Positions 4,538 through 18,920 of a stretch of 20,624 nt of DNA are shown one piece after another. The notes under the pieces are model-generated. The model made no database searches. It had not been told where the DNA came from and saw only the letters and a list, made by a program, of their open reading frames with translations. Within the stretch, counting starts at the first letter, position 1. Every line of letters starts with the position of its first letter. The translations under genes and the position numbers were made by a program. This DNA is from a virus. Taxonomy: Duplodnaviria; Heunggongvirae; Uroviricota; Caudoviricetes. The stretch lies in the IMG/VR virus record IMGVR_UViG_2563366839_000008. One strand, 5' to 3'.

Positions 4538-4590
4538 GGGCGGCAGAGCAGTCACGGAGTAAAACTGATACCGCCAAACGTCACCAGAAA
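4538..4590 (-). ncRNA. dicF: DicF small RNA (53 nt; antisense regulator of ftsZ and other mRNAs)
   Basis: Minus strand reads TTTCTGGTGACGTTTGGCGGTATCAGTTTTACTCCGTGACTGCTCTGCCGCCC followed by TTTTT, matching recalled DicF including its 3' terminator hairpin (GGCGG/CCGCC). Upstream of dicB as in the Qin dicB operon. Confidence 0.85.
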
Positions 4591-11478: not shown

Positions 11479-11689
11479 AAACGGTTTGCGGGAAAAGGAG
11501 AGTTAAGTAGAATTGCAGCGGGTGCTTGAGGCTATCTGTCTCAGGCATGAACACCAAAAGGCAGATAGAGAAAAGCCCCAGTTAACATTACGCGTCCGGC
11601 AAGACGCTTAACATTAATCTGAGGCCATATCTATGCTCTACACACGTAGGTTAGCCTCTTACGTGCCGAAAGGCAAGGAGAAGCAGGCT

Positions 11690-11845
11690 ATGAAGCAGCA
11701 AAAGGCGATGCTAATCGCCCTGATCGTCATCTGTTTAACCGTCATTGTGACGGCACTGGTAACGAGGAAAGACCTCTGCGAGGTACGAATCCGAACCGGC
11801 CAGACGGAGGTCGCTGTCTTCACAGCTTACGAACCTGAGGAGTAA
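11690..11845 (+). CDS. hokD: Hok/Gef-family type I toxin (HokD/RelF-like), 51 aa
   Basis: Translation MKQQKAMLIALIVICLTVIVTALVTRKDLCEVRIRTGQTEVAVFTAYEPEE matches recalled HokD; SD AAGGAG 8 nt upstream. Structured leader at 11480-11689 and a 3' hairpin at 11853-11877. Confidence 0.85.
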   Translation: MKQQKAMLIALIVICLTVIVTALVTRKDLCEVRIRTGQTEVAVFTAYEPEE

Positions 11846-11913
11846 GAGACCCGGCGGGGGAGTAATCTCCCGCCACCTCTGATGTGCCAGGCATCCTCAA
11901 CGCACCCGCACTT

Positions 11914-11935
11914 AACCCGCTTCGGCGGGTTTTTG
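11914..11935 (+). terminator. Rho-independent terminator (hairpin CCCGC-TTCG-GCGGG plus T-tract) after hok
   Basis: AACCCGCTTCGGCGGGTTTTTG; the same 20 nt recur at 13749-13770. Confidence 0.6.
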
Positions 11936-11946
11936 CATTAGTCTGG

Positions 11947-11976
11947 TTGACAAAAATAGAAAAATGCGAAAATATG
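11947..11976 (+). promoter_or_regulatory. Candidate promoter of the two-gene cassette
   Basis: Consensus -35 TTGACA at 11947-11952 in an AT-rich stretch; the -10 is weak (AAATAT/AATATG). Low confidence. Confidence 0.3.
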
Positions 11977-12010
11977 TGGTTTACGAATTCTAAAAAAAGC
12001 GAAACTTGAA

Positions 12011-12661
12011 ATGAATGAAAATCAGTTAGCTCCTTGTTGGGAATTTCAACCTTATCTTGCTGAAAACTATGTTCGCCACTTGTTGGCGGAGATCGCTAAC
12101 GTACTTGAGCAGCTGTACTATCATAAGCACGCATTAGACAGCAACTGGTCTGAAGGTGTAAGGGCTTATGATTGGGTCAGAAATCATCTTATTCAAAATG
12201 AAGATGCAATTCCTGGCCTTGAGATGATTTCCAAGGGGTTGGACTATGTAGTTGCTTTAAATAAAGTTCCGCTACAATTTACCAAAGATTGCATTAATAA
12301 CCCCAAAAAGAAACATCGTCTGCGTCGAAATAAAGTAGAGTATGAGCAGCTCTCATTGTTTGGTGATGTTGAGGCTGAGCAAGATATTACATGGCGAGTC
12401 ATAGCTGAGCCTTTTTTATCCGAAGAGGGCGATGGTGAATTAGAGTCCACACTGCCTCGTTGGGAGGTAGCTCTTGTTGGATTTAATACTTATGGTGCTC
12501 AGATTAGTATAGTTTCTCATCAATCTACAGCATCGATGCCGCTTATGCCTCTTGATTATAACACACTCCCTGACGAAGCGGAGATTAATAAGGTGCCTCT
12601 TCGTCGGCGTACGAAGGATAAAGATTTGGATGTGAGCAGTGATGGAACATCAGGTGAATAA
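12011..12661 (+). CDS. Unknown protein, 216 aa; upstream partner of the HTH-metallopeptidase gene (candidate effector/toxin)
   Basis: AT-rich ORF with a weak SD, overlapping the downstream gene by 20 nt. No recognisable catalytic motif. Flanked by terminators. Confidence 0.65.
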   Translation: MNENQLAPCWEFQPYLAENYVRHLLAEIANVLEQLYYHKHALDSNWSEGVRAYDWVRNHLIQNEDAIPGLEMISKGLDYVVALNKVPLQFTKDCINNPKKKHRLRRNKVEYEQLSLFGDVEAEQDITWRVIAEPFLSEEGDGELESTLPRWEVALVGFNTYGAQISIVSHQSTASMPLMPLDYNTLPDEAEINKVPLRRRTKDKDLDVSSDGTSGE

Positions 12662-13745
12662 CTTCACTGAGTATCGGGGTGATAAGCTCAAACTAGCGAG
12701 AATGGCTGTTGGGCTTTCTTGTGAAGAGTTAGCCGAAAAAATTGGCAAGACAAAGCAATTCGTTAGCAAACTGGAGAAGGGGTGCAGGCCATCGGAGCAA
12801 TGTCTTGAGTTAATATCTTCAGCGCTTATGATTAAGTCCAGTTTTCTTTTTACTGAACGAAAATACGCTCTGGAAAGTGATGTCTGCCATTTTCGGAGTA
12901 AGAAGTCCAGGACTCAAACGCTGACTAATAGTGTATTGGCCAGGGCTGAGATTCTTAATATTATAATTTCTGCTGTTGAAGGTGAAATCGAATTTCCTGA
13001 CGTTAACATACCGGAGCACCCAGGGGCTGAATTACTTACTCCGAATGATATTGAGCGAGTGGCAGAAGATTGTCGCCGTGCCTGGAATTTAGGTCTTGGC
13101 CCTATATCATCAATGGTTAAATTGGCGGAGAGTTTAGGGGTAATCGTTGCGCATGTTACGGGAGTCGATGATCGTGTTGATGCTTTTACTGTTCACAATA
13201 ACAGGCCTGTTATCATCAGGAACAATGTTAAAAAAAGCATATGTAGATTTCGCTCTGATTTAGGTCATGAATTAGGGCATTTAGTAATGCATGAGGGCAT
13301 AACGACAGGTGATAAACTTACGGAATCACAAGCCGATCACTTTTCGAGCGCCTTATTAGTTCCCAGGTTATCTTTCATTAAAGAATTTCCACGAATACGA
13401 GGTAAGCAATTCGACTGGAATGCTCTGGTTGAATTTAAACTTAGATGGAAAATCAGCCTTAAAATGTGTATTTATCGAGCCAGCGCATTAGGCTTATTGA
13501 CCCAGGAACAGGCAAGAACTGGCTATATGCATCTTAATTCCAGAGGGTATACGAGAGTTGAACCTGGTGATGAACTTTTGCGCCCTGAAGAACCCGGCAT
13601 GCTGGCCGAGGCGATTGAAATGCTGGATGATGCAACCTGGCTAAGAATTCTTATGAAAACTGGCTTGAGCCAAGATTTAATTCGTGAGTTGTTCTCCATC
13701 AACAGACCTATTACAAATCCAAGAAATATTTTCCAGATTGTTTGA
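12642..13745 (+). CDS. XRE-family HTH fused to ImmA/IrrE-family zinc metallopeptidase (COG2856-like, HEXXH motif), 368 aa
   Basis: N-terminal HTH LKLARMAVGLSCEELAEKIGKTKQFVSKLEKG; central zinc-peptidase motif DLGHELGHLVMHE. ATG at 12642 (GTG at 12639) is coupled to the upstream gene. AT-rich. Confidence 0.8.
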   Translation: MEHQVNNFTEYRGDKLKLARMAVGLSCEELAEKIGKTKQFVSKLEKGCRPSEQCLELISSALMIKSSFLFTERKYALESDVCHFRSKKSRTQTLTNSVLARAEILNIIISAVEGEIEFPDVNIPEHPGAELLTPNDIERVAEDCRRAWNLGLGPISSMVKLAESLGVIVAHVTGVDDRVDAFTVHNNRPVIIRNNVKKSICRFRSDLGHELGHLVMHEGITTGDKLTESQADHFSSALLVPRLSFIKEFPRIRGKQFDWNALVEFKLRWKISLKMCIYRASALGLLTQEQARTGYMHLNSRGYTRVEPGDELLRPEEPGMLAEAIEMLDDATWLRILMKTGLSQDLIRELFSINRPITNPRNIFQIV

Positions 13746-13748
13746 GTA

Positions 13749-13776
13749 TACCCGCTTCGGCGGGTTTTTTGTTTTT
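13749..13776 (+). terminator. Rho-independent terminator, identical core to the one at 11914-11935
   Basis: TACCCGCTTCGGCGGGTTTTTTGTTTTT immediately after the metallopeptidase-fusion stop. Confidence 0.65.
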
Positions 13777-13854
13777 ATTTTCAACGTGTTTGAAGTTTTG
13801 GACGGTGCCAGAATAGAATCAAAAATACTTAAGTAGCGCGCAGGGAGAAGAGGG

Positions 13855-14076
13855 ATGGACCCCGAACAGGGGGAGTGCTATTTATCTGGAAGGATTCTGT
13901 TGATGAAAATCGAAGAATTACGTGAAATTTTTAGTGAAGATGGCCTCTATGCTGTGCGCGTTGAGAATGGGGGTATTACCTACACAGCGTTAATTCCTGA
14001 TGATCATGTAGTGTTATCTGTTGAGGCATTCATTGAATACTTGGAAAGACTCGGTTTCAAGGTAGTTCGGGAATAA
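13855..14076 (+). CDS. Hypothetical small protein (73 aa; 57 aa if started at ATG 13903)
   Basis: Two possible starts: 13855 preceded by GGGAGAAGAGGG, and 13903 with GGAAGGA 8 nt upstream. No domain recognised. Confidence 0.45.
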   Translation: MDPEQGECYLSGRILLMKIEELREIFSEDGLYAVRVENGGITYTALIPDDHVVLSVEAFIEYLERLGFKVVRE

Positions 14077-14136
14077 GTTATAATACGTGAGCCAGCCTGA
14101 ACAACTGGCAACCTGCTGCGCCAGCAGAGAAAACAG

Positions 14137-14409
14137 ATGGCGCACAAAACCAAATTTCACAATTCTGATACCGACCTTGCCATCCGGCATGAGCGGCGTT
14201 CACACGCATTTAAAACCGACTGGTACCAACACCCACCATGTACTGAAGAACAGGCCGAATGGCTGATTCATAACTACCGCAGACGTGGATATGAGTTTAG
14301 GAAAGCCCTCACCCTCGATTATCGTCACTGGATAATCTACGTCAGACTCCCTTATTCCGAACGCCCACCGCGTCCGTCCCGCACATTCCAGCAACGCATC
14401 TGGAGGTAA
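14137..14409 (+). CDS. Hypothetical basic protein, 90 aa
   Basis: ORF ending 2 nt before the ydfU-like start; Arg/His-rich; weak SD. Confidence 0.45.
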   Translation: MAHKTKFHNSDTDLAIRHERRSHAFKTDWYQHPPCTEEQAEWLIHNYRRRGYEFRKALTLDYRHWIIYVRLPYSERPPRPSRTFQQRIWR

Positions 14410-18173: not shown

Positions 18174-18464
18174 ACAACGAATCCTTCTGATCTGCTTTTG
18201 CGGGGCTTTTTTGTATCCGCTCCATGCCCGGCGTATAAGCGGAGGTTGGTCAGTTTTCTAAAAATTGAAATACCTCACAATTCAGCCAGTTAATGGTTGT
18301 TTGTCTGGCGAAGAGTTTGTAAATAAAAAAACGCATGGTGAATCCCCCTAAGCGGCGGGGCGAATCAGCAGTCAGTTCTGGGATAATCGCGGGTTCGTAT
18401 GCTGATGCCGGACTCACCGGGAGGCACCCGGCACCATGCATCATGGTCATCCCCTTGTATGATA

Positions 18465-18488
18465 CCCCTCTCCGGAGGGGTATTTTTT
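18465..18488 (+). terminator. Rho-independent terminator
   Basis: CCCCTCTCCGGAGGGG hairpin followed by TATTTTTT. Confidence 0.55.
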
Positions 18489-18920
18489 GGATAAAAAAGC
18501 CCGCGCTGGGAGGCACGGGCGGCAAGGAATAAAACGTGAAGAAATTTTCACAGGCGCATAATAATCCGATGTTGCCAGATTTTGCAACTGCATCATCTGG
18601 TTATTATGTGAGCTGGAAAATCAGATTCTGTATGGACTGAAGCCATGCTGTTATTTAGGGCCAAAGAGCTGGCTTTTTCCCGCCTTCTCTCCAGTAACGA
18701 TTAATGAGAAAAGAATGAAATGCTTTTCCTGGGGAGGAGGGCAGTAGAAAAAAGAACCCGCCAGCAAAAATATGGGGGATGAACAGCTTTTGCTACTCAG
18801 GTTGCTGGCGGGTATGGTTCTTCATGAAATAAGAATGTTACGCGGTATTTTTAATGAAAATGATAATTATTGTCAATTGGTTGTGCGTATTTTTTCATAC
18901 ATGACTGGTAAAGGTGATTC

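Follow-up and report, generated by a model that had tools for sequence, protein, structure and literature searches.

The genes rmrT and rmrA lie next to each other in a virus sequence of 20,624 nt (Caudoviricetes, IMG/VR record IMGVR_UViG_2563366839_000008), called the window here. They very probably form a toxin–antitoxin (TA) module of the Rosmer type, in which RmrT is the presumed toxin and RmrA the presumed antitoxin. The pair is carried on a moron of 1.8 kb, which is self-contained and located in the nin region of an Escherichia coli lambdoid prophage. Rosmer is an already known type of system, and both genes are already recognized by the catalogs of defense systems. Judged by its characterized relatives, the cassette is likely to defend against some phages. 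The explanation that we moderately favor as a whole is that of a Rosmer anti-phage moron whose toxin is proposed to target the β-clamp (DnaN), the clamp step being the most tentative part.

Rosmer systems have been described as a zinc-peptidase antitoxin combined with a toxin of unknown function, and constructs lacking rmrA could not be transformed (Millman et al. 2022). According to Ernits et al., one ImmA-protease antitoxin node is connected to many unrelated toxins. Phage protection has been demonstrated for the Rosmer system of E. coli OLC-716 and for the system of Gordonia phage Kita, the toxins of which are unrelated. The validated OLC-716 pair that is used for comparison throughout was taken from Table S2 of Millman et al. 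2022. The features of the cassette in the window are the following.

11915-11934, + strand: left 20-bp direct repeat with the hok terminator hairpin and T-run; left cassette boundary, present as a single copy in the empty-site alignment.
11935-13769, + strand: Rosmer cassette, a 1,835-bp insertion/deletion unit with a GC content of 0.417, supported by presence/absence counts.
11944-12004, + strand: operator-like direct repeats, 33 nt apart, found by repeat search.
11947-11975, + strand: candidate cassette promoter, recognized by eye, with -35 TTGACA at 11947-11952, a 17-nt spacer, and a -10-like AAATAT at 11970-11975.
12011-12661, + strand: rmrT, 216 aa, presumed toxin/effector (PADLOC PDLC03929, phrog_5786).
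12347-12361, + strand: codons of QLSLF (aa 113-117) in RmrT, preceded by the conserved E110; a β-clamp-motif look-alike in the flexible loop aa 93-126.
12642-13745, + strand: rmrA, 367 aa, XRE helix-turn-helix (HTH) plus M78 (ImmA/IrrE) zinc peptidase, presumed antitoxin and autorepressor (PADLOC PDLC03943, Pfam).
12687-12827, + strand: HTH_3 of RmrA (Pfam, aa 16-62); among proteins of solved structure, SinR and the 434 repressor are nearest in sequence.
13167-13484, + strand: Peptidase_M78 of RmrA (Pfam, aa 176-281), with HELGH at nt 13266-13280 and E228 (nt 13323-13325) as the likely third zinc ligand.
13750-13769, + strand: right 20-bp repeat/terminator, which begins 4 nt past the rmrA stop codon; right cassette boundary.

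The assignment to Rosmer is carried mainly by RmrA. The protein joins an HTH_3 domain to a Peptidase_M78 domain, and its sequence DLGHELGHLVMHE contains the HELGH motif. H209, E210, H213, and E228 are invariant in an alignment of five sequences that is composed of the RmrA of the window, three homologs with 33-63% identity, and the validated OLC-716 RmrA at 28%. Judged from this alignment, the HExxH…E site of the zinc peptidase is intact. The PADLOC RmrA profile PDLC03943 is matched over nearly its full length, with aa 11-350 of the protein aligned to positions 2-342 of the 370 in the profile (349 bits, E 6.2e-105). RmrA is also matched by 13 other PADLOC RmrA profiles and by the PADLOC profile capP (E 1.6e-14). 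In a direct comparison with the validated OLC-716 RmrA, the identity is 29% (E 2e-35). The NCBIfam equivalog model NF052239, which describes the spr1629 family repressor/antitoxin, is aligned over the full length with 155.9 bits (E 1.5e-45), which lies below the cutoff of 335 bits; by this score, RmrA is a homolog but not an equivalog of the spr1629 family. Among the PHROGs, RmrA is assigned to phrog_2439. A CHFR motif is located in the linker between HTH and peptidase (aa 82-85, nt 12885-12896), and its F84 and R85 are invariant across the homologs, including the validated RmrA. This motif could be an autocleavage or hinge site.

RmrT is recognized by the PADLOC RmrT profile PDLC03929 (E 4.6e-25), which has positions 5-195 of its 198 aligned to aa 7-209 of the protein, and by phrog_5786, a family of unknown function. 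No Pfam or NCBIfam domain was detected in the protein. A search of solved structures with an RmrT profile returned a single chance match (E 0.83), and Foldseek found no match among viral structures. RmrT is acidic (pI 4.9), soluble, and devoid of a transmembrane segment, the highest 19-aa Kyte-Doolittle mean being 0.84. The AlphaFold2 model, which was built from an alignment of 42 sequences, reaches a predicted local distance difference test (pLDDT) score of 73. Its confident core consists of two long helices that are followed by a β-β-β-α-β arrangement, and the loop at about aa 96-125 and the C-terminal tail are modeled with low confidence. The validated OLC-716 RmrT shows no BLASTP similarity to this protein, hhalign gives a probability of 0.3% for the pair, and the two toxins fall under different PADLOC RmrT profiles (PDLC03929 for the window, PDLC03935 for OLC-716). 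On these comparisons, the RmrT of the window represents a separate family of ~200 aa that is unrelated in sequence to the validated toxin. Our literature search found no experimental work on this family.

Taken together, the locus displays an adjacent and co-oriented gene pair, an M78 peptidase with XRE HTH and intact HExxH, a match to a curated RmrA profile, and a match to a cataloged RmrT profile. Of the sequence features that were compared with Rosmer systems, only homology of its RmrT to the OLC-716 RmrT is missing. The assignment does not depend on this homology, because RmrA, around which Rosmer is defined, is paired with diverse toxins. An earlier reading of the bare sequence (the original prediction) had interpreted the second gene as a fusion of an XRE-HTH with an HEXXH peptidase, which is borne out by HTH_3, Peptidase_M78, and HELGH. 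It had also proposed a TA-like or anti-phage system with Rosmer as an example, and had named a PADLOC search as a check. This search identifies both genes as Rosmer with full-length matches, and the layout is that of the validated Rosmer, Vmi480/Vmi470, and RipAB systems. The upstream partner had been described as lacking a recognizable domain. That description is correct for Pfam and NCBIfam, but the protein does match PDLC03929 and phrog_5786, and the suggestion of a new effector does not stand, since the family is already cataloged as an RmrT subtype. A housekeeping or structural relative of the 216-aa protein, which would have spoken against the proposal, did not appear in the Pfam, solved-structure, and fold searches.

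The pairing of the two genes is a property of the whole RmrT family. A word-indexed search for RmrT yielded only 21 close clusters, all from Enterobacterales, and 69 proteins, nearly all of them ~200 aa in length, were obtained at E ≤ 1e-3 when 1.84 billion representatives were searched exhaustively with a profile. A locus search with a narrower RmrT alignment gave only three genome loci. Distant RmrTs with 20-25% identity, which are found in Photobacterium beside integrases and in a type I restriction-modification (RM) island, each have a Peptidase_M78 gene of 375-377 aa directly downstream, and in Photobacterium the partner was additionally seen to contain an HTH. When 34 IMG/VR loci were selected through their RmrA (36-100% RmrA identity), the upstream open reading frame (ORF) always belonged to the same RmrT family. 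Every examined member of the RmrT family sits directly upstream of an RmrA gene, either abutting or overlapping it, and pairing and gene order are therefore family-wide. In the RM island, the distant RmrT/RmrA pair directly follows hsdM, a DUF1016 gene, and hsdS of the type I system, which places it in a defense island outside prophages.

In the window, rmrT and rmrA are co-oriented ORFs on the + strand at 12011-12661 (216 aa) and 12639/12642-13745 (368/367 aa). The RefSeq annotation of identical DNA in E. coli 042 starts rmrA at ATG 12642, so that the gene overlaps rmrT by 20 nt. One promoter region and one terminator serve the pair. The GC content of the cassette (0.417) is the minimum for any 1,835-bp stretch of the window (median 0.467), and the GC content at third codon positions is 0.35 for rmrT and 0.38 for rmrA compared with 0.52-0.56 for the adjacent genes. 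A terminator scan places hairpins that resemble intrinsic terminators on both sides of the pair, and both hairpins share the exact 20-bp repeat ACCCGCTTCGGCGGGTTTTT at 11915-11934 and 13750-13769. Directly upstream of the cassette lie hokD and sok. The original prediction had described two AT-rich genes with a 20-nt overlap that are bracketed by identical terminators in a moron position after hok, and each part of this description agrees with the coordinates, the composition, the repeat, and the neighboring genes, as well as with the occurrence of the cassette as a presence/absence unit.

This occurrence can be followed across E. coli. Carriers of at least 80% of the region 11600-14100 make up 232 of 5,426 complete E. 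coli genomes, many at 100% identity, and include E. coli 042 and ABU 83972. The empty site was searched with a synthetic query in which the left flank was joined to the right flank over one copy of the terminator. It was found precisely, as one uninterrupted alignment each, in 1,869 E. coli genomes. In the one empty site that was aligned in full, the hok terminator passes directly into the downstream sequence. The cassette therefore represents a clean presence/absence polymorphism of 1,835 bp with the duplicated terminator at its borders. The site 3′ of the hok terminator is itself a clean insertion/deletion point in E. coli, empty in 1,869 genomes and filled with Rosmer in 232. RmrT and RmrA are both very common in public data, where each is present on at least 1,000 contigs. 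In Providencia and Proteus, another lambdoid prophage carries, likewise in its nin region, an RmrT with 47% identity together with an overlapping RmrA. The Providencia copy has no flanking duplication of the terminator, and the repeat therefore belongs to the site of insertion in E. coli rather than to the cassette. Megablast and tblastn searches of the GenBank phage collection returned no match to the cassette or to RmrT.

Expression of the pair is probably controlled from a short region in front of rmrT. The candidate promoter has a perfect -35 hexamer (TTGACA), and its -10 element (AAATAT) matches the consensus at 3/6 positions, for which reason it was missed by a consensus scanner. Two direct repeats of the form TGGTTGAC…GCGAAA (11944-11971) and TGGTTTAC…GCGAAA (11977-12004) overlap this region. 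A block with the sequence TGGTTGACAAAAATAGAAAAATGCGAAAATAT at 11944-11975 is kept nearly base for base 5′ of rmrT in Providencia and Proteus (positions 2937-2968 and 2935-2966 of the respective loci), where RmrT itself is 47% identical. The second, degenerate copy of the block is located 33 nt downstream in E. coli and upstream in Providencia and Proteus. Across these three loci, the constraint on the promoter/operator block is much stronger than that on the rmrT coding sequence. The repeats are candidate operators overlapping the promoter, to which the HTH of RmrA would bind.

The proposed mechanism follows from other members of the Rosmer family, by which RmrT would be the toxin and RmrA the antitoxin. 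RmrA would neutralize RmrT and at the same time repress the operon through the operator-like repeats. Neutralization would additionally need the host proteins ClpX/ClpP. In Pectobacteriaceae, transposon sequencing (Tn-seq) shows rmrA and clpX to be essential in strains with Rosmer but not in the others. In E. coli E101, clpP is essential owing to a prophage TA system with a domain-less upstream toxin, which Millman et al. cite as having the same configuration. Neutralization in the RipAB system depends on ClpX as well. The essentiality of clpP and clpX and the need of RipB for ClpX suggest that RmrT is either cut by RmrA or handed over by it for degradation. On phage infection, this balance would be upset, and the RmrT that is set free would abort the infection. 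In the least certain step, the E-x-x-QLSLF loop of RmrT would enter the hydrophobic cleft of DnaN, compete with the clamp partners of the replisome, and thereby stall replication.

This last step originates from a short motif in RmrT. E110-x-x-Q113-L-S-L-F117, within the loop peptide VEYEQLSLFGDVE, is the sole linear motif outside the structural core that is conserved family-wide. It lies in an accessible, flexible loop (pLDDT about 52-56), as is expected of β-clamp binders. Among 53 members that are less than 50% identical to the RmrT of the window, E110 is retained in 49, Q113 in 41, and L116 in 35, and the adjacent loop positions vary. The motif appears in the family as QLSLF, QLTLF, QMSLL, QLALAL, and QLSLAF. 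QL(S/D)LF is the published consensus for binding to the bacterial β-clamp, and the toxin SocB blocks replication with such a motif. When RmrT is shuffled with its composition kept, the exact form QL[SD]LF appears in 0.027% of the shuffles. In a set of 630 distinct ORF translations, taken from all six frames of every locus retrieved, it is confined to the RmrT family and absent from about 600 control ORFs. From this resemblance, RmrT may target the β-clamp, although we regard this as less probable than a different target. The full proposal, in which RmrT poisons the clamp by docking of QLSLF and is disarmed by RmrA and ClpXP, possibly by a cut in or near the motif, is likewise tentative and somewhat doubtful.

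Other Rosmer toxins show related features. RipA, the Rosmer-family toxin of Streptococcus pneumoniae, interacts with DnaN, and its toxicity is relieved by suppressors that cluster in the hydrophobic pocket for motifs of this kind. The OLC-716 RmrT contains QLKLDL at aa 143-148 in a loop of variable length, and its 15 Enterobacterales-type relatives follow the pattern Q[LMI]x[LFI]x[LF]. In the marine relatives of OLC-716 RmrT (Vibrio, Photobacterium, Shewanella), NLDLF stands at this position after a 12-aa deletion in the loop. Since the unrelated OLC-716 family has a QLxLxL-type motif and RipA targets the same pocket, clamp mimicry may be a recurrent and convergently evolved effector strategy of Rosmer systems. 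No paper linking a clamp motif to Rosmer toxins was found in the literature.

Several points weigh against the picture of a Rosmer defense module with a clamp-directed toxin. Toxicity, neutralization, and phage defense are transferred to the subtype in the window by analogy with other Rosmer systems, and the RmrT of the window has no detectable similarity to the validated RmrT. The proposed promoter has a weak -10 element. A looser hexapeptide form of the clamp motif is not rare, being met in 1.3-2.8% of the shuffles and in 10 control ORFs. The motif is also degenerate in several clades (QSMSLF, DDLF, YDLF), and only [LM]F with an acidic tail is universal. The conserved loop could instead be a cleavage site for RmrA or a packing element. 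The Rosmer toxin of Gordonia phage Kita depolarizes the membrane and is no replication inhibitor, and Rosmer toxins therefore lack a single common mechanism.

The alternatives differ in how much of the Rosmer assignment they leave in place. One of them retains the module and gives a different purpose to the loop: E110…QLSLF117 would be the site that RmrA recognizes or cleaves, and the cellular target of RmrT would lie elsewhere. This is a possibility to be taken seriously, even if we think it rather unlikely. The motif is situated in a long, flexible loop of low pLDDT between two strands of the core, where a site-specific protease would inactivate the fold, and only the hydrophobic [LM]F with the acidic tail is shared by all members. 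The dependence of Rosmer-type systems on ClpX/ClpP would suit a cut that is followed by degradation. M78 relatives cut after a hydrophobic residue in a linker, as ImmA does in ImmR and IrrE in DdrO. The motif, however, equals the clamp consensus far more exactly than a generic cut site requires, and a Rosmer-family toxin has already been tied to the DnaN pocket. Both readings are also compatible, as a cut inside the clamp motif would disarm the toxin efficiently. A different activity was considered for the fold of RmrT, namely that of a PD-(D/E)xK-fold nuclease that degrades DNA once it is freed from RmrA. The predicted core order α-β-β-β-α-β suits this fold, but the N-domains of inositol monophosphatases score equally well, no sequence match to a solved nuclease or a Pfam family was obtained, and conservation is missing at the catalytic positions, with D78 variable and strand 3 (VP[LV][QR]F) devoid of an acidic residue. 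A nuclease is accordingly improbable, and a canonical PD-(D/E)xK enzyme was rejected, as the conserved D of strand 2 and the (D/E)xK of strand 3 are absent. A membrane-depolarizing toxin of the Gordonia phage Kita type was likewise rejected, since RmrT has no transmembrane segment and is acidic and soluble.

The remaining alternatives concern the purpose of the pair. It could serve only as an addiction or stabilization module of the prophage without protecting against phages. Its position beside hok/sok, another post-segregational killer, agrees with this, and Vmi480/Vmi470 and RipAB have been characterized as TA systems without a phage phenotype. Two Rosmer systems with unrelated toxins nevertheless protect against phages, a distant homologous pair resides inside a type I RM island, and addiction brings little benefit to a prophage that is integrated into the chromosome. 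The frequent absence of the cassette from the same prophage site also speaks against strong addiction, so that a function restricted to stabilization appears unlikely, if somewhat less so than a nuclease. It is very unlikely that the roles of the two proteins are reversed. In PD-λ-2, the Xre-peptidase is toxic by itself on overexpression and is rescued by the upstream HigB-like protein, but that system has three genes with the HigB-like gene as the first one, and the peptidase gene is essential or acts as antitoxin in Rosmer, Vmi480/Vmi470, RipAB, and the Tn-seq data from Pectobacteriaceae. Finally, the HTH-peptidase could be an ImmA/IrrE-like regulator of prophage induction or of the DNA-damage response, with rmrT as an unrelated passenger. 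Its domains belong to the ImmA/IrrE family and its HTH resembles phage repressors, yet rmrT co-occurs with rmrA across genera and phyla in overlapping frames, and no separate substrate gene of the ImmR/DdrO type is adjacent. A role as the prophage's own induction regulator, which the original prediction had named as a reason for abandoning the defense proposal, is ruled out by the dispensability of the cassette, a nin-region indel far from the immunity region that is absent from 1,869 otherwise near-identical prophage sites. The broader regulator reading is extremely improbable. An ImmA/ImmR induction switch was rejected in view of the fusion of HTH and peptidase, the position in the nin region, and the related prophage sites that lack the cassette, and a CapH/CapP regulator of a cyclic oligonucleotide-based anti-phage signaling system (CBASS) was rejected for lack of CBASS genes nearby.

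The Rosmer assignment with a proposed clamp-directed toxin can be compared with several known systems. The OLC-716 Rosmer shares the order of two co-oriented genes with the toxin first, the ~370-aa XRE-HTH plus M78 antitoxin with the same active-site motif, the residence on mobile DNA of E. coli, and, in the toxin, a variable loop with a conserved motif of the QLxL(x)[FL] type. It differs in that the toxins are unrelated in sequence and have separate PADLOC RmrT profiles, and the phage defense of OLC-716 has been assayed. RipA/RipB (Spr1630/Spr1629) from S. pneumoniae has the same HTH-ImmA-like design of the antitoxin, and RmrA aligns with the spr1629 model over its full length. RipA acts on the hydrophobic pocket of DnaN, which is the site that the QLSLF motif would bind. 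In contrast, RipAB is chromosomal, comes from a Gram-positive bacterium, and was studied for competence rather than for defense; RmrA scores below the equivalog cutoff (156 compared with 335 bits), and the toxins were compared by description only.

SocAB, a type VI TA system of Caulobacter, resembles the proposed mechanism, as SocB blocks replication at the β-clamp cleft via a clamp-binding motif. SocB is reportedly kept in check through ClpXP, and SocA is said to be a small ClpXP adaptor without an HTH or a peptidase. There is no sequence or domain similarity between SocAB and rmrT-rmrA, and SocAB is not known to act in phage defense. Vmi480/Vmi470 from the Vibrio mimicus island MGIVmi1 is a validated TA system on a mobile island, which is likened to the cassette by architecture only: a domain-less upstream toxin that is lethal in E. 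coli is followed after a 5-bp gap by an HTH-zinc-peptidase antitoxin with a promoter of its own. ImmA/ImmR, IrrE/DdrO, and CapP/CapH likewise combine a peptidase of the M78 family with an XRE HTH. They keep the HTH repressor as a protein of its own, which the protease cleaves to switch on a response. In rmrT-rmrA, by contrast, HTH and peptidase are fused and have a presumed toxin as partner, and neither a CBASS nor an integrase module lies next to the pair.

The surroundings of the cassette contain further elements of the prophage. The hok/sok system upstream looks intact, with an Rfam match to sok at 11520-11695 (117 bits) and hokD at 11690-11845. Two unrelated toxin systems, hok/sok and Rosmer, are thus placed back to back with a terminator sequence in common. 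Downstream of the cassette, the small ORFs 13855-14076 and 14137-14409 match phrog_340 and phrog_1212, two PHROG families of unknown function. The incomplete pseudogene that RefSeq annotates there is a 75-nt fragment within ORF 13855-14076. Two other prophage RNAs were identified by Rfam, DicF at 4538-4589 on the - strand (77 bits) and the small RNA STnc100 at 18304-18492 on the + strand (115 bits).

The value of the cassette lies in its mechanism, as the system itself adds nothing new and would be assigned to Rosmer by PADLOC and DefenseFinder alike. It is carried by about 4% of complete E. coli genomes, with the well-studied 042 and ABU 83972 among them. As a common E. coli member that is easily cloned and whose flexible loop holds a textbook clamp-binding peptide, it offers a direct handle on how Rosmer toxins kill and on why their carriers come to need ClpX/ClpP. 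If the proposal proves true across the unrelated Rosmer toxins, it would tie this defense family to replication arrest and would explain the parallel with the ClpXP-controlled SocAB.

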